Numbered from the stretch's first letter, positions 42,651-49,010 are shown. The stretch is 64,000 nucleotides of DNA from an uncultured Pelagibacteraceae bacterium (GCA_902628195.1 CACOLY010000004.1:183-64182); one strand, 5' to 3'. Notes: generated from the sequence alone by a model not told the origin. Made by a program: numbers and translations.

Positions 42651-42697
42651 TTGCGTGCATTGTATAAATGCGCTATAAATTAGAACAAAACAAGAAC
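42651..42697 (+). promoter_or_regulatory. umuDC promoter with LexA box GAAC-N7-GAAC
   Basis: TTGCGT (42651-56), a 17-nt spacer, TATAAA (42674-79), then GAAC-AAAACAA-GAAC (42683-97) abutting the ATG at 42698. Confidence 0.85.
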
Positions 42698-43093
42698 ATG
42701 AAACTAACTGTCCCTTATTATCTACATAAAGCTGGTGCTGGTTTTCCATCACCTGCTACTGATTATATCGAAGAAGACATTGATCTGAACATGCATTTAA
42801 TCAAAAATGTTCCGGCCACTTTCATTATTAGAGTTCAAGGAAAATCAATGGTCGATGTTGGAATTAATGATGGAGATTTATTAGTTGTCGATAAAAGTTT
42901 AAAGCCAAAAAACTTTTCAACAGTTATTGCAAATGTTCATGATGAACTTGTAGTTAAAACTTTAGTTCAAGAAAGAGATAAAAAATTTCTAACATCTGGA
43001 TCTAAAGATTTTTCAAATAGAATTTTAATTAACGAGGAAGAAGATGTTTTTATTTGGGGGGTTGTGACTTATGTCATCCATTCAACATACTAA
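42698..43093 (+). CDS. umuD: UmuD-like S24 peptidase (Pol V accessory); probable start at 42698
   Basis: AGFPSPA cleavage-site motif, V.G.SM (Ser), VVK.L (Lys), IWGVVT.VI. Confidence 0.92.
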   Translation: MKLTVPYYLHKAGAGFPSPATDYIEEDIDLNMHLIKNVPATFIIRVQGKSMVDVGINDGDLLVVDKSLKPKNFSTVIANVHDELVVKTLVQERDKKFLTSGSKDFSNRILINEEEDVFIWGVVTYVIHSTY

Positions 43094-44348
43094 AAAATTA
43101 GCTTTAGTTGATTGTAATTCTTTTTATGTTTCTTGTGAAAGATTATTTAATCCAAGAATAAGAAGAAAACCTGTTGTAGTTTTATCTAATAATGATGGCT
43201 GTATTATTTCAAGATCTAATGAAGCAAAAGCTTTAGGAATTAAAATGGGTGAACCCTATTTTAAAGCAAAAGATGTCATTGTTAAAAATAAAGTTGAAGT
43301 TTTTTCATCAAATTATTCTTTATATGGAGATTTATCTAGAAGAGTAATGAGAACTCTTAAAAGATTTAATACAGAAATAGAAGTTTACTCAATTGATGAG
43401 GCATTTATAGATTTATCTAATTTTCCAGACTCTGAAGTTGAAAAAGTTGGAAGAGAAATTAGAGAAACAGTTCTACAATGGACTGGAATCCCGACTAGTA
43501 TCGGCATTGCTAAAACTAAAACTTTAAGCAAAGTAGCAAATCATATTGCAAAGAAAAAACAATCAGGTGTTGTTAGCTTAGTTGGCATAGAAAATTTAGA
43601 TCCAATTTTAGAAAAAGTTGAAATCAATGATATATGGGGTGTTGGTAGGCAACTTACAAAATTTTATCAAAAAAATGGAATTTATAATGCAAAGCAACTT
43701 AAGAATAAATCTAATACTTGGATTAAAAAATGTTCTAATGTTTTAAGTTCTAGAACTGCAATGGAACTTAGAGGCATTCCTTGTATCAATTTAGAAACCA
43801 CACAAACAAAAAGAAAAAGTTGTGTCGTGTCAAGATCGTTTGGTAAAAGAATTGAAAAGTTTCAAGAACTAAAAGAAGCAGTTGCAAACTATTGTTTAAA
43901 TGCATCTGAAAAAATTAGATCCGAGTCTTTAGTTGCGAAAGCAATTACGGTATTTGTTAGAACTAGTCCTTTTCAAAGAGATTATGGTTATTATTCAAAT
44001 GCAAAAACAATCGACTTTCCAATTGCAACAAACAATAGTATTGAAACAGTTAAAACTGCAGTTTCAATTCTAGAAAGTATTTTCAAAAATGGTTATCGTT
44101 ATCAAAAAGCAGGTGTGATGCTCACAGGATTACGTAATGATGATGTAAGAAAAAATTTATTTTCATCTGAAAAAGATGAAAAAATAAAAAGTTTAATGCG
44201 ATCAATTGATAATACTAATTATAGATATGGCAGATCAACTTTAAGTCTTGCAAGTGCTGGGGTTCATAAAAGATGGAATATGCGAAGACAATATTCTTCT
44301 AAAATAGATACTGCTGATTTCTATTCATTACCAAGAATAAAAATTTAA
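43071..44348 (+). CDS. umuC: Y-family translesion polymerase UmuC
   Basis: LVDCNSFYVSCE, VVLSNNDGC.I, SSNY.LYGDLS, YSIDEAF, SRSFG, W.MRR...S. Confidence 0.95.
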   Translation: MSSIQHTKKLALVDCNSFYVSCERLFNPRIRRKPVVVLSNNDGCIISRSNEAKALGIKMGEPYFKAKDVIVKNKVEVFSSNYSLYGDLSRRVMRTLKRFNTEIEVYSIDEAFIDLSNFPDSEVEKVGREIRETVLQWTGIPTSIGIAKTKTLSKVANHIAKKKQSGVVSLVGIENLDPILEKVEINDIWGVGRQLTKFYQKNGIYNAKQLKNKSNTWIKKCSNVLSSRTAMELRGIPCINLETTQTKRKSCVVSRSFGKRIEKFQELKEAVANYCLNASEKIRSESLVAKAITVFVRTSPFQRDYGYYSNAKTIDFPIATNNSIETVKTAVSILESIFKNGYRYQKAGVMLTGLRNDDVRKNLFSSEKDEKIKSLMRSIDNTNYRYGRSTLSLASAGVHKRWNMRRQYSSKIDTADFYSLPRIKI

Positions 44349-44391
44349 GGTTTATAATTGTTAATTAGTATAATTTTTTAAAGACCCTACA

Positions 44392-45132
44392 TTACTTCTT
44401 ATTTTTTAAAATTATATTAGTGTATGTAAAAGTAGTGGTTCCAGTATCTCCTATACGATACATACCTATTTTGATATAAGGTTTATTTGGACCATACGGG
44501 CCATCTGTTCTTTTTTTAATTATTGGAACATTCAAGTTTTGAATTATTAACTCTCCCTCTAAAAAGTACTTGGCAGAAATAATTTTTTCTTTTTTATTAT
44601 ATTCAATCTCAGCTCGGAATTTTTTATTATCTCCTGGTTTTAAGTATGCGTCATAGCTGACTTGTTTACATTTTGGTTTAAAACATTCAGTAGCATGCTG
44701 ATTTCTGACAGCCCAATCTCTACTAACTTGAACCATTGAAGGCGGTTTTCCAGAAGATCTACCATCATGTATTTGAAAAAAATGAGACCGATACTGTGGT
44801 GCTCCATCAGGCTGTATATTAGCTTCAAATATTGTGAAACCTGGGCTAAGTTTATGAGTAATTTCTTGTCTACCGGAATATTTATATCCTCCTGTTGGTT
44901 TTTTGTCTGATTTACATTTACCAATTTCACCTTTGTCTAACTTGAACACTGCGCTTTCAACTTTAAATGAATTTTTATTATAACTTTTTTTTGGTTTTCC
45001 ATTAATCACTAAGGCTTCTTTGTCTGTTAGGCCACAAGAAATCTTCCACTTATTTTGAATTTTCCATTCATCAGCAATAGAAAAATTATTAAATAAAAAA
45101 AATAAAATTGTAGTTACAAATAATTTTTTCAT
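44392..45132 (-). CDS. Secreted protein, polysaccharide-lyase / heparin-lyase-like beta-jelly-roll (tentative)
   Basis: Signal peptide MKKLFVTTILFFLFNNFSIA; motifs GRQEI, FFQIHDG and PYIKIGMYR. Confidence 0.55.
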   Translation of the reverse strand: MKKLFVTTILFFLFNNFSIADEWKIQNKWKISCGLTDKEALVINGKPKKSYNKNSFKVESAVFKLDKGEIGKCKSDKKPTGGYKYSGRQEITHKLSPGFTIFEANIQPDGAPQYRSHFFQIHDGRSSGKPPSMVQVSRDWAVRNQHATECFKPKCKQVSYDAYLKPGDNKKFRAEIEYNKKEKIISAKYFLEGELIIQNLNVPIIKKRTDGPYGPNKPYIKIGMYRIGDTGTTTFTYTNIILKNKK

Positions 45133-45141
45133 TGTATTAAA

Positions 45142-46014
45142 TTATTTAATTTCTTCTATACTATCTATATTGGATAATGCCTTATCAAATTCATCCATAT
45201 TTTCTCTTAAAGCTAAACTTGAAATTGAATAAATCATTATCAATAAAAATACTAAAGGTATGGCTGTAATAACGCTTGCATTACTTTTTATAATCAAAAT
45301 ATAAACAATTATAAATAAAGCTGAACGGACCAAAACTGTTTTTCTAAAAACACTTATAATTGAAAGAGAATGTTTTAGAAGGTTAAAAAAACTCATCTTT
45401 GAAGGTCCAAAATATCTAGGACCTCTACTAGACGGTATTGGTAATAAATCTTCCTCTAGTTTTGTCAAAGAGCCAGAAAAACTATTCCATGTAGCTTTTT
45501 CGTTAATCATTTTTTCAACAATAGTTTTTGGCAAGCAAGTATAATTTCCAAATCTAATCGATTTACCTGTAAAAGTTAAAGTAATTAATTTATGCATTTG
45601 ATAACAAATTTTAAAAATCAGACCCTCTGATCTTTTTACTCTTTGTCCTATAATAGCTCTACCATTAGACTCATCTATTTTATTTAAAAATTCTTTTATT
45701 TCTTCTGGTCTATCTTCTCCATCTCCATCCATAGGAATAATGTAATCAAATTCTTCTTTTTGATAAATATATTTTAATCCAGTGGCAATACATCTTGCGT
45801 GACCTTGATTTATTTTCATATTGATAATTTTTAAAGATTGAAAATTTTCGTAATCTTTTTTATTATTTGGACGATCATGATTTGATGCGTCATTAACTAT
45901 GATTATAGAAATTTGAAATTTTGGATCAATCGATAAACCATTGATTTCGTCAATTAATTTAAAGGTTGATTGCCAATCATTATATACTGGAATTAAAATT
46001 TTGATTTTCATCAA
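45142..46014 (-). CDS. GT2 glycosyltransferase (polyprenyl-phosphate sugar synthase-like)
   Basis: LIPVYND, VND.S, N.GH...IA.G, MDGDGED.P, C-terminal TM segments. Confidence 0.85.
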   Translation of the reverse strand: MMKIKILIPVYNDWQSTFKLIDEINGLSIDPKFQISIIIVNDASNHDRPNNKKDYENFQSLKIINMKINQGHARCIATGLKYIYQKEEFDYIIPMDGDGEDRPEEIKEFLNKIDESNGRAIIGQRVKRSEGLIFKICYQMHKLITLTFTGKSIRFGNYTCLPKTIVEKMINEKATWNSFSGSLTKLEEDLLPIPSSRGPRYFGPSKMSFFNLLKHSLSIISVFRKTVLVRSALFIIVYILIIKSNASVITAIPLVFLLIMIYSISSLALRENMDEFDKALSNIDSIEEIK

Positions 46015-47021
46015 TTAATTTTTTTCAACCATTCATTCTTTGTTTTTTCGTCCAAAAAAGATGATTTAAAGGAATTCTTAATCAATATTTTTACGTGGTT
46101 TAATTCTAAATTTAGAGCATTTGCAGTATCAATTAAATTTTTATTTAAGTAACCACCAAAATATGCAGGATCATCTGAATTCACCATTGCTCTTAAGCCT
46201 TTATCTAACATTTGTTTTAAATTGTGATTTTCTAATTTGTCAAAAACACATAACTTAACATTAGATAATGGACATACGGTTAATGGAATTTTATCTTTTT
46301 TTAATCTATTTACCAACTTTTCATCTCTAAGACATTGTACACCATGATCAATCCTTTTTACTTTTAATAAATTTATACTATCCCAAATATATTCTGGTGG
46401 ACCTTCTTCACCAGCATGTGCAACTGTTAGAAAACCCTCTTCCATAGCTTTTTCAAATAATGACTTAAATTTTGTTGGAGGATTTCCTTTTTCAGATGAG
46501 TCCAAACCTACACCGATAATCTTATCTTTATATTTACATGCTTCTTTTAATACTTCAAAACAAGAATCTTCGTCTAAATGTCTTAAAAAACACATTATAA
46601 TTTTAGAAGAAATATTAAATTCTTTTTCAGCTTTTTTTAAAGCTTTATCAATACCATTAATTATTTTATCAAATCTAACTCCTCTTACTAAATGCGACTG
46701 AGGATCAAAAAAAATTTCAGTATGGACAATATTATCTTCCTTGCATCTTAAAATATATTCCCAAGTTAGATCAAAAAAATCTTCTTCATTAATTAAAACG
46801 TTAGAACCTTCATAATAAATTTTTAAAAATGAATCTAAATTAGTAAAATTATAAGCAGATTTTATCTCCTCAACTGATTTAAATGGAATCTCAACTTTGT
46901 TACGTTTAGATAACTTAAACATTAATTCGGGCTCTAAACTTCCTTCAATATGAAGGTGCAATTCAGCTTTAGGTGTTTTATTAATATAATTAATAATTTG
47001 TTCAGACATTTTAATTTCCAA
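46011..47021 (-). CDS. add: Adenosine/adenine deaminase family protein
   Basis: PKAELHLHIEGSLEP, VAHAGEE, RIDHG, CPLSN, NSDDPAYFG. Confidence 0.92.
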   Translation of the reverse strand: MEIKMSEQIINYINKTPKAELHLHIEGSLEPELMFKLSKRNKVEIPFKSVEEIKSAYNFTNLDSFLKIYYEGSNVLINEEDFFDLTWEYILRCKEDNIVHTEIFFDPQSHLVRGVRFDKIINGIDKALKKAEKEFNISSKIIMCFLRHLDEDSCFEVLKEACKYKDKIIGVGLDSSEKGNPPTKFKSLFEKAMEEGFLTVAHAGEEGPPEYIWDSINLLKVKRIDHGVQCLRDEKLVNRLKKDKIPLTVCPLSNVKLCVFDKLENHNLKQMLDKGLRAMVNSDDPAYFGGYLNKNLIDTANALNLELNHVKILIKNSFKSSFLDEKTKNEWLKKIN

Positions 47022-48396
47022 TCATACAAAAACCTTGTTTTTTAATCTTACCATATATTCCAGGACATACTTGTTTTAAAACATCCGCGTTTCCAGTATA
47101 AACAACTCCCCCATCTTTATCTAACTTGTCGGCTTTGCCTTTAATTGAACTAAACCATATGGGTCTTGATGAAATATGATAAGATAAATTGCCTGCATGC
47201 CACTCATCACCAACTACATATTTTATTTCATTAGAAAAATTTTTGTCCCATCTTCTCTCAACTAGTTCTGCTATTTCTCTTCCAGGATAATCTGTTCTTT
47301 TATTTTTTTCTGAAATAGAAACGTAAGAATAGATAGACGGAGATAATATAAATAGAAATAAAAAAGCACAAAGAAATGATCTTATCTTTTTTAAGTTTAT
47401 TTGGGATTGAAATATGTAAATAAATAATACACCAAAGAATAAATAAAATGGTGTCATCCACATTGTTCTTATTCTAGATCCCATTAAAATAGACGTAGCC
47501 AAAATTAAAAATATTGGAAATAAATTAACAAATAATAAAAAGATTAATTTTTTATCTTTTAAATTTAATTTTAAATTAAATTTATTTATAATTAGTAATC
47601 CTAATACCAAAAATGGTATTAATGTTCCAATTTGTTTAACTAAAAATATTCCAGGATATTTAATATGATTAAATAGGCTTGAACTGTCTAAACTTGTTCT
47701 TTTTAAACCATAACTCAAAGTAACGAAATCATTATTAAATAACCAAATTAAATGTGGTACCAATAAAACTAAAAATACCTCTATTATTATAAGATATTTA
47801 AAATCAAATTTTTTTAATTTTTTTACAAAGATTATATAAATGAATAATGCAACAATTGATAATAACAAATACAAAAATAAATATTTTGATAGAAAACCAA
47901 TTGCACCAAATAAACCAATTAAAAAACAATGAAAAAATTTTATATTTTTAGCATTATAAATTTTCCAAGAATAATAAACAGTTAATGACCAGAAAGGTAA
48001 TTGACAAACATTTACATTAAACTCTGGAGTAGTAAAATTAAAAAAATAAATAGACTCTATCAACAAAACAGATAATAAACCCAGTTTAATATTTTTAAAA
48101 ATTTCGGTTGAGAGCTTGAAGACATAATAAAAAGCAATCACAACAAAAATTTGACTTAATAAATAAAAAGCCCAATCTTGCGCTCCAAATATTTGAAAAA
48201 ACATTTCTGGAAAAAAAGCACTTCCTGGTGGATGTTTGTTAAAACCCCAGTCTAAATTACTTCCCCAAGCCAAAGCTTCTATTACATCCAAAGGTAAGTT
48301 TTTATTAGTAATAGTTGGAACAGCCGTCCATATAATTAAGTGGGCAAGTATAAATATAAAAAAAATATTTGTAATATTTCTTTTTAAAACATTCAT
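47011..48396 (-). CDS. GT-C fold membrane glycosyltransferase (GT39/ArnT-like)
   Basis: D..EAL.WG..L.WG..KHPP, multiple TM segments, LSKY, PHL.W. Confidence 0.8.
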   Translation of the reverse strand: MNVLKRNITNIFFIFILAHLIIWTAVPTITNKNLPLDVIEALAWGSNLDWGFNKHPPGSAFFPEMFFQIFGAQDWAFYLLSQIFVVIAFYYVFKLSTEIFKNIKLGLLSVLLIESIYFFNFTTPEFNVNVCQLPFWSLTVYYSWKIYNAKNIKFFHCFLIGLFGAIGFLSKYLFLYLLLSIVALFIYIIFVKKLKKFDFKYLIIIEVFLVLLVPHLIWLFNNDFVTLSYGLKRTSLDSSSLFNHIKYPGIFLVKQIGTLIPFLVLGLLIINKFNLKLNLKDKKLIFLLFVNLFPIFLILATSILMGSRIRTMWMTPFYLFFGVLFIYIFQSQINLKKIRSFLCAFLFLFILSPSIYSYVSISEKNKRTDYPGREIAELVERRWDKNFSNEIKYVVGDEWHAGNLSYHISSRPIWFSSIKGKADKLDKDGGVVYTGNADVLKQVCPGIYGKIKKQGFCMIGN

Positions 48397-48425
48397 TACC
48401 GATTATTTACAATAATTAAGCTGCC

Positions 48426-48460
48426 TTGACACTATTAATTTGCTGAATATACTGCCTCGG
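48426..48460 (+). promoter_or_regulatory. sigma70-type dksA promoter with GC-rich discriminator
   Basis: TTGACA (48426-31), a 16-nt spacer, TATACT (48448-53), then GCCTCGG. Confidence 0.7.
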
Positions 48461-48473
48461 TTTAAATTAAGAT

Positions 48474-49010
48474 ATGCCTAAAACTAGCAAAGTAAAAAAA
48501 AAAGTATCAAAAGTAAAATCAGTAAGTAAAGCTAAACCTAAAAGGTTACCTAAACCTAAAAGTTTATCTAAAACTCAAGACGTAAATAAAGGTCCAATTA
48601 AAATTTCAAAAAACTATATTCCAAAAGAAACTGAAAAATATATGTGTGAAAAACATAAAGTTTTTTTTAGAATGAAATTACAAGAATGGAAAAAAGAATT
48701 AATCAAATCGAATAATGAAGCTCTTTACAATGGAAGTATGGATGACAACAGTATTTCAGCTGATATTGTGGATCAAGCAAGCTCTTATACTGACAAAAAT
48801 GTTGAAATGAAAGCTATTAACAGACAAATTAAACTTATTTCTGAAATTGATAAAGCTTTGGCCAGAATTAGAGAAGATACATATGGATTTTGTTTAGATA
48901 CTGCAGAGCCAATTGGGCTAAAGAGATTAATGGCTAGGCCAGTAGCAAAATATACTATAGCAGCTCAAGAAAAACACGAAAAAGATGAAAAGGTGCATGC
49001 TGATGACTAA
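48474..49010 (+). CDS. dksA: RNA polymerase-binding transcription factor DksA (zinc-free type)
   Basis: YM.E....FFR.KL..W, coiled-coil tip DIVDQAS, R..KLI..I..AL.RI, YGFC..T.EPIG..RL.ARP.A. Confidence 0.93.
   Translation: MPKTSKVKKKVSKVKSVSKAKPKRLPKPKSLSKTQDVNKGPIKISKNYIPKETEKYMCEKHKVFFRMKLQEWKKELIKSNNEALYNGSMDDNSISADIVDQASSYTDKNVEMKAINRQIKLISEIDKALARIREDTYGFCLDTAEPIGLKRLMARPVAKYTIAAQEKHEKDEKVHADD

Follow-up and report, generated by a model that had tools for sequence, protein, structure and literature searches.

Lyases of family PL7 are single-domain proteins of 210-260 aa that carry the signature R(S/T/N)E(L/V)R ... Q(I/V)H ... YFKAG(V/I)YNQ. Crystallographic and neutron work on this family has assigned the role of catalytic base/acid to the Tyr of the K-x-x-x-Y motif, with His setting the position of the +1 sugar and the carboxylate bound by Arg and Gln (PMC11920209). 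Heparin lyase I (PL13; B. thetaiotaomicron 3IKW/3IMN, B. eggerthii 9GRW) is also built on a beta-jelly-roll core, but is a larger enzyme of ~370 aa with a thumb domain, an omega-loop and a Ca2+ site (PMC13714783). It is the enzyme on which the Pfam family PF14099 (Polysacc_lyase) is centred. Within Pelagibacter itself, homologues of a third family, PL5, were published in 2025 (Sci Rep, PMC11890756). In that study further alginate-related genes were not found, transcripts dropped as phosphate rose, and the SAR11 lyases could not be tied to degradation pathways (PMC11890756).

Here we describe a gene for a putatively exported, lyase-like protein of 246 aa, ~226 aa when mature (for brevity the lyase gene and the lyase protein), in a stretch of 64,000 nucleotides from an uncultured Pelagibacteraceae bacterium (GCA_902628195.1, CACOLY010000004.1:183-64182; hereafter the window). 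The lyase protein is of the same single-domain size class as PL7, its best structural matches are PL7 enzymes (AlgAT5 5ZQI, ALY-1 1UAI, A1-II' 2CWS, AlyC3 7C8G, TpPL7A 7NDE), and its three motifs align by HMM, in the same order, with the three catalytic motifs of that family, the Tyr/His/Gln/Arg logic being common to both (PMC11920209). The PL7 signature is nonetheless incomplete: R-Q-E-I-T stands at the first motif, Q-I-H is kept, and the third reads Y-I-K-I-G-M-Y-R-I without N-Q, so that the PL7 tail Y-N-Q is replaced by Y-R-I-G. The lyase protein has no match to PF08787 (Alginate_lyase2, the PL7 model) at E <= 1, and its identity to solved lyases, PL7 included, is 8-14%. With heparin lyase I it has in common the jelly-roll core, the Q-x-H strand, a RefSeq name and a nearly identical C-terminal catalytic strand (Y-F-K-F-G-I-Y-R-V-G in heparin lyase I, Y-I-K-I-G-M-Y-R-I-G here). 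However, it lacks the thumb domain, the omega-loop and the Ca2+ site, it has an extra Cys-bearing N-terminal segment, and the HMM similarity spans only ~50 residues (heparin lyase I ~311-361); heparin, moreover, is implausible as an open-ocean substrate. The 'Ca. Pelagibacter' PL5 homologues come from the same group of organisms and, like the lyase gene, are exported and accessory, and some sit in the very same chromosomal slot (loci L015 and L020), but their fold is an alpha/alpha toroid (PF05426) unrelated to a jelly roll. PF14099-type genes such as the one described here are absent from the treatment in the PL5 paper, though they are commoner in the genus (PMC11890756), and our literature search found no paper on SAR11 genes of this type.

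Family, fold and predicted active site of the lyase protein

The signal peptide, the motifs GRQEI, FFQIHDG and PYIKIGMYR and the four Cys that the first-pass annotation had read from the DNA are all present in the 246-aa open reading frame (Table 1) and conserved across 121 clusters of homologues, and the positions of the three motifs match the raw sequence. The N-terminus, with MKK followed by a hydrophobic run and SIA/DEW, is a classical Sec/SPase I signal; AlphaFold2 models it as an N-terminal helix (H2-15), and a column of A-x-A-like small residues is conserved ahead of the mature start (D/E)EWK in alignment A1, the low-diversity close family of the lyase protein. The translation holds exactly four Cys (C33, C73, C150 and C155). 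The mature protein, of ~26 kDa, lysine-rich and with a pI of 9.7, is probably periplasmic or released, and is probably stabilised by two disulfides, for one of which C33-C73 is the probable pairing.

Table 1. The lyase gene, its encoded features and its neighbours; positions are counted from the first letter of the window
Feature	Position	Strand	Basis or remark
Lyase CDS, 246 aa, PF14099-like, putatively exported	44392..45132	-	Stop codon included; ORF calling, translation, Pfam, model, Foldseek
Sec signal peptide, residues 1-20	45073..45132	-	Predicted cleavage SIA/DEW, lipobox absent; sequence reading, A1 column
Cys33 codon	45034..45036	-	Kept in distant relatives too
Cys73 codon	44914..44916	-	A1 alignment, conservation count
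Motif 1, GRQEI, residues 87-91 (R88, E90), strand E86-94	44860..44874	-	Counterpart of PL7 R-x-E; AlyC3 R-N-E
Motif 2, FFQIHDG, residues 118-124 (Q120, H122), strand E115-122	44761..44781	-	Counterpart of PL7 Q-(I/V)-H
Cys150 and Cys155 codons, C-x4-C loop	44668..44685	-	SAR11-clade-specific; alignments
Motif 3, PYIKIGMYR, residues 218-226 (Y219, K221, G223, Y225, R226), strand E219-227	44455..44481	-	
96-aa GTG ORF, out of frame inside the lyase gene	44640..44930	-	Without support, most likely spurious
umuD-umuC, convergent with the lyase gene	42668..44348	+	Other border of the variable slot
Core GT2, polyprenyl-phosphate sugar synthase-like, C-terminal TM helices	45142..46014	-	One border of the variable slot
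Adenosine deaminase, between GT2 and PMT_2	46011..47021	-	PF00962, E 2e-93
Core PMT_2 (GT-C, ArnT-like), partner of GT2	47011..48396	-	

Among 5.8 billion clusters searched, 192 homologues were found, drawn mainly from ENA, JGI and Tara metagenome assemblies, with hundreds of members in some clusters and a precomputed PF14099 match in most. The best 120 of the 192 are 54-98% identical to the lyase protein and nearly all ~247 aa long, and one 80%-identical protein, WP_075502225.1, bears the RefSeq name 'heparin lyase I family protein' (Candidatus Pelagibacter communis/ubique). When conservation was counted over 121 cluster representatives (54-100% identity), R88, Q89, E90, Q120, I121, H122, D123, Y219, K221, G223 and R226 were invariant (121/121), Y225 was kept in 120 of the 121, and each of the four Cys in 120-121. 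Since the three motifs are invariant or nearly so across this set, they are not a product of chance. Position 92, the site of the second Arg in PL7 R-x-E-x-R, holds Thr instead of Arg in 116/121 clusters. An exhaustive profile search over 1.84 billion representatives at 50% identity produced only 110 matches which, fragments aside, come down to one close full-length cluster and ~30 distant full-length relatives of 200-270 aa. Down to ~20% identity these relatives keep D76, R88, E90, Q120, G223, Y225 and R226 without exception, and at least 90% of them keep C33, H122 and K221 (alignment A4, which holds the lyase family and its distant metagenomic relatives only, canonical paralogues excluded).

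The PF14099 (Polysacc_lyase) match of the lyase protein scores 29.2 bits (E 1.1e-6) against a Pfam gathering cut-off of 29.9, covers residues 115-235 only, and gives 28.6 bits in a six-frame search; orthologues in L011 and L012 reach 37.3-37.5 bits, above the cut-off. An NCBIfam search with the lyase protein gave nothing meaningful, and a PDB sequence search with the single sequence or the A1 profile returned noise only (VPS26, NUP133). Lyases appear in such PDB profile searches because of the diversity added in A4 and in the broader profile A2. The A2 profile matches PL7 AlyC3 (7c8g; E 8.3e-6) with R-x-E, F-Q-I-H and K-x-G-x-Y aligned on R-N-E, F-L-Q-V-H and Y-F-K-A-G-V-Y, and it also matches heparin lyase I and several further PL7 enzymes, while the A4 profile matches heparin lyase I (9grw; E 8.5e-5) through the strand Y-F-K-F-G-I-Y-R-V-G. 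In these profile alignments motif 3 is the counterpart of both PL7 YFKAGxY and heparin lyase I YFKFGIYRVG. Aligned by hhalign with the canonical SAR11 PF14099 paralogues (alignment A3), A4 gives a probability of 97.7% (E 2e-12; 174 columns aligned) and keeps all three motifs in register, a result that supersedes the alignment of A1 with the same paralogues (63% probability, C-terminal 57 columns only). The alignments with AlyC3, 9grw and A3 bear out the earlier statement that the motifs follow the order seen in PL7 and heparin lyase I.

The AlphaFold2 model, built on A1 (pLDDT 87, pTM 0.83), is all-beta, and DSSP places each of the three motifs on one beta-strand. Its top Foldseek matches in the PDB are PL7 alginate/glucuronan lyases (5zqi, E 8.8e-9; 1uai, 7w13, 2cws, 7nde; TM 0.5-0.57), and PL7 structures hold ranks 1, 2, 4, 6, 10, 11 and 12, followed by heparinase I (3imn, 3ikw), ulvan lyase NLR48, GH131, GH16 and lectins. 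It should be noted that a TM of ~0.5 denotes similarity at the level of the fold only, and that matches to lectins, GH16 and GH131 count against the lyase reading. A GH16-type hydrolase was considered and rejected, the motif E-x-D-x-x-E being absent from the sequence. The fold foreseen in the first-pass annotation, that of a jelly-roll lyase, is thus upheld by model and Foldseek, while the convergence of the three motifs on one cleft is argued by homology only. The alignments make R88, Q120, H122 and Y225 the equivalents of the PL7 Arg, Gln, His and Tyr, and by that homology the four would share one cleft, with Y225 as the predicted catalytic Tyr. In the sequence read together with DSSP, R88/E90, Q120/H122 and Y219/K221/G223/Y225 are spaced i/i+2 and separated by hydrophobic residues, which fits one cleft-facing sheet surface.

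Taken as a polysaccharide-lyase-like protein, as it had been from the start, the lyase protein finds support in its PF14099 score, in the RefSeq name of its relative, in the jelly-roll model and in the alignment of its motifs to the catalytic motifs of solved lyases. Profiles and model alike support a place as a beta-jelly-roll member of the PL7/heparin-lyase-I/PL20 (PF14099) superfamily. The similarity is one of fold plus a lyase-type active-site signature, without close membership in a characterised CAZy family; in other words, the lyase gene represents a divergent clade of a known lyase superfamily, already auto-named by RefSeq. We posit that the product is a Sec-exported, single-domain beta-jelly-roll polysaccharide lyase that, on homology with PL7 and heparin lyase I, would act by beta-elimination on a uronic-acid residue and cut its 4-O-glycosidic bond. 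The C5 carboxylate would be bound and neutralised by R88 and Q120 with help from K221; H122 would either place the +1 sugar or act as base, and Y225 would be the catalytic base/acid. It is also conceivable, although we regard it as quite improbable, that the scaffold now belongs to a derived carbohydrate-binding protein, or that it supports another chemistry such as that of a polymer-level uronate C5-epimerase, an enzyme that has the proton-abstraction step in common with lyases. The sole point in favour of a non-catalytic or epimerase-like role is the remoteness of the similarity: solved lyases resemble the protein at fold level only, ConA-like lectins and glycan-binding domains are among the Foldseek matches, the PF14099 score lies under the cut-off, and nothing in characterised lyases corresponds to the N-terminal ~60 residues with their conserved Cys pair. 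Yet enzyme-derived binding proteins usually lose their catalytic residues, whereas here the Arg/Gln/His/Lys/Tyr set is invariant or nearly so in the 121 clusters and largely kept at 20-30% identity, and the lyase protein shows neither lectin-typical repeats nor a multidomain architecture.

The slot behind GT2 and other genomic contexts

The lyase gene starts 9 nt behind the co-directional GT2 gene, and its stop codon lies 43 nt from that of umuC. The stretch 44200-48700 yielded no terminator-like site, and a scan for promoters did not rise above background. The GC content of the lyase gene (0.30-0.32) is like that of its flanks in a host genome of about 1 Mb with 29% GC (93% complete), and horizontal transfer as judged by composition was rejected on that similarity. 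GC content and genome size, taken with the RefSeq names of the homologues, mark the host as a Pelagibacter (SAR11). GT2 is a core gene, present in 39 of 41 genomes of relatives. In each of the 13 relatives inspected it directly adjoins PMT_2, without the adenosine deaminase gene that separates the two in the window and whose ends overlap both; this deaminase gene is therefore a lineage-specific single-gene insertion into a conserved pair.

What lies on the other side of GT2 is far from constant. It may be a PL5-like lyase gene (E 1e-33; L015, L020), a 275-aa PF14099 paralogue (E 1e-19; L016, L021), DUF1800 with a Tat-signal DUF1501, alone (L028, L029) or followed by unknown secreted proteins and lyases (L011, L031, L030), ppc (L017-L019, L022) or a guaC-like gene (L024). 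All of these genes follow GT2 within a few nucleotides, and tight spacing is hence uninformative on function. Of the four genomes that have ppc behind GT2, two (G208, G176) contain a PL5-like gene ~3 kb downstream of GT2, past ppc. Overall, the 12 kb that follow GT2 include a lyase-like gene in 15 of 39 genomes, far above chance placement, though related genomes are non-independent. The layout of the window, with an exported lyase-like gene between GT2/PMT_2 and umuC, is that of this SAR11 lyase slot.

The DUF1800-DUF1501 pair, which has a Tat signal and belongs to the sulfatase/alkaline-phosphatase superfamily, is found directly behind the core GT2 in many Pelagibacter species (L011:4105-6686; L028:2818-5405; L029:2401-4985; L030:13023-15625; L031:2374-4958). 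The secreted proteins that sometimes follow it, ahead of lyases, have 335-482 aa and no Pfam matches. The pair may be part of one acidic/sulfated-glycan island.

Genes of the A1 family were seen in six kinds of context. Those in the same slot are accompanied by a 414-aa PF14099 paralogue (L048, an 85%-identical relative) or by DUF1800, DUF1501, an unknown protein and a paralogue (L011). In L042 the A1-type gene lies between a 2-hydroxyacid dehydrogenase gene and umuC; in Ca. P. communis (L039) it is flanked by umuD and GFA, and a further paralogue lies 2 kb away. Two lineages (L010, L045) have it between hisH and hisA. In L009 its neighbours are a paralogue and MFS/EamA transporter genes, and in L012 it shares an island with a PL5-like gene, an FG-GAP protein gene and two additional PF14099 genes. 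Two glycan-synthesis clusters also contain it, one with GT1/GT4, epimerase, DegT and Glyphos_transf (L008) and one with MBOAT, GT2 and radical SAM (L047). L048/L049, L009, L011 and L012 each have a second PF14099 gene immediately beside the A1-type one; in L039 the distance is at most 2 kb. The most frequent neighbour is umuD-umuC, a marker of the flexible-island border, and the commonest partners are umuDC and other lyases, not glycosyltransferases. The L012 island (L012:2753-7801, genome G190), where PF14099 proteins of 400 and 425 aa, a PF05426 protein of 413 aa and a 505-aa FG-GAP protein are encoded beside the A1-type gene, is the densest lyase cluster seen.

These contexts bear directly on the role that the lyase gene was first given, that of remodelling the cell's envelope, which had been argued from its GT2/GT-C neighbours. 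The neighbouring pair is presumably akin to polyprenyl-phosphate-sugar systems, of which ArnC/ArnT and the rhizobial RgtE/RgtD galacturonosyl system are examples. In Pseudomonas, AlgL is a periplasmic PL5 alginate lyase encoded in the alginate biosynthesis operon and acts on the cell's own polymer, and as an exported lyase encoded with glycan-synthesis genes it provides a conceptual analogue. A periplasmic lyase could, in the manner of AlgL and perhaps in connection with GT2/GT-C, trim, size or clear the cell's own uronic-acid-bearing envelope or capsular glycan, and we hold this to be unlikely. The co-directional arrangement at 9 nt with no terminator-like site found in 44200-48700, the recurrence behind GT2 of lyase-like genes of two unrelated folds (the 15 of 39 genomes above), and the presence of the family in the surface-glycan biosynthesis clusters L008 and L047 all favour it, as do the uronate catabolism genes undetected in the host genome (see below) and the PL5 paper, which likewise ties no SAR11 lyase to a degradation pathway (PMC11890756). 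Against this, GT2 and PMT_2 are core, whereas the lyase gene occurs in 5/146 species and its family in at least five other contexts. The equally tight spacing of ppc, DUF1800 or a guaC-like gene behind GT2 indicates plain SAR11 gene packing, and the hisH-hisA loci of two lineages and the umuD-GFA locus of Ca. P. communis place the A1 family far from any glycosyltransferase. Beta-elimination, moreover, requires a 4-O-substituted uronate, and the single terminal sugars delivered by an ArnT-like system would be no substrates for it. AlgL itself has the PL5 fold and is a fixed member of its operon; the lyase gene instead moves between unrelated loci. The case for envelope remodelling from the neighbouring genes is therefore not supported, and GT2/PMT_2 are bystanders of the lyase gene whose adjacency looks coincidental.

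Lyase genes across the genus and their likely target

With a family profile, an A1-family gene was detected in 5 of 146 other species genomes of the genus, and one weak match was found elsewhere in the order. Of 151 high-quality genomes of the genus, by contrast, 68 carry PF14099 genes of any kind, with as many as five copies, and 36 carry PF05426 (PL5-like) genes; on the assumption that the same sample underlies both counts, as the listings suggest, ~90 of the 151 (~60%) have at least one gene of either kind. PF05426 was not found in the host genome. The lyase gene is hence a rare cassette in a lineage rich in lyase genes, and the pan-genomic result, partly published for PL5, is that lyase genes are common and positionally organised in SAR11. 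The first-pass framing of a lineage not known to degrade polymers is weak, both because Pelagibacter PL5 homologues have been published (PMC11890756) and because genes of PF14099 or PF05426 occur in ~60% of the species sampled. A phage origin of the lyase gene was also considered and rejected: there was no tblastn match in 50,697 phage records, IMG/VR held only two remote matches to the lyase protein (22-24% identity), and a viral fold library gave generic ConA-like matches.

The host genome contains a second PF14099 gene (G000:C11:4217-4855; L033:1411-2403, minus strand) directly behind hisF, between it and HIT and GNAT genes. Its product of 330 aa (E 6e-13) has a weak PF08787/PL7 match and G-Q-C-H in place of F-Q-I-H. 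Together with the A1-type lyase genes between hisH and hisA in L010 and L045, this position makes the his operon a second hot spot for lyase cassettes.

We propose that the lyase gene is an accessory cassette of one gene, drawn from a large stock of interchangeable exported lyases in SAR11 that consists of PF14099 jelly rolls and PL5-like toroids, and that such cassettes would gather in a few insertion hot spots, chiefly the core GT2-umuDC stretch. The target would be an external acidic, possibly sulfated, poly- or oligosaccharide of marine dissolved or gel organic matter. An external acidic glycan is the most likely target because the lyase gene so often adjoins other lyase paralogues; the clustering with lyases of two folds is repeated, a sulfatase-superfamily protein (the Tat-signal DUF1501 of the L011 pair) and transporters occur alongside, and there is no fixed biosynthetic partner. 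KDPG aldolase, KduI and GH88 are not detectable in the host genome (93% complete); with no canonical route to consume unsaturated uronates visible there, a simple feeding role is disfavoured. Nor do TonB/Sus-type uptake genes adjoin the lyase gene. Putting these observations together, we would give an even chance to the full reading of the lyase protein as an active exported uronate beta-eliminase, encoded by an accessory cassette untied to the neighbouring glycosyltransferases and with an external acidic glycan as its likely target.

A broader hypothesis, which we offer as doubtful, is that SAR11 maintains a pan-genomic set of swappable exported uronate lyases, of two folds, in ~60% of species and with one hot spot, that these truly cut acidic polysaccharides, and that the A1 clade is a new PL family with a disulfide-bearing N-terminal module. 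If so, the target could be marine gel or exopolymer, cut to free bound nutrients, to escape entrapment or for a non-canonical form of oligomer feeding, or else a uronate-bearing envelope glycan that is varied under phage pressure. SAR11 is the most abundant marine heterotroph, dominates the surface ocean and is modelled as a consumer of low-molecular-weight compounds, and the marine dissolved and gel carbon contained in acidic polysaccharides is a large pool with slow turnover. Were the lyases active, the most abundant cells in the sea would touch part of the turnover of acidic polysaccharides; alternatively, SAR11 surface glycans would include actively remodelled uronate polymers, with a bearing on phage-host dynamics. 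Taken alone the lyase gene is an auto-annotated divergent member of a known enzyme superfamily, and the pan-genomic pattern is of more interest, but the gene is small, single-domain and easily expressed, which makes the question directly testable.

Two further genes were seen in the course of this analysis. A 528-aa Heparinase II/III-like protein (PF07940, E 2e-44) is encoded in the host genome between rpe and purH (G000:C19:5695-7281, locus L035), with a sulfotransferase gene nearby (L035:9281-10132). Its family was also matched in the Caulobacter control genome, and it is probably a conserved alphaproteobacterial gene; this match and the rpe-purH location give it the look of an unrelated housekeeping-region gene, and it was set aside as a partner of the lyase. 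Finally, an 824-aa open reading frame overlapped by proline/glycine-rich alternative frames (collagen-like low-complexity repeats) lies inside a variable island of genome G169 (L030:8603-11077), beside a sulfatase-like gene and a TRAP transporter.
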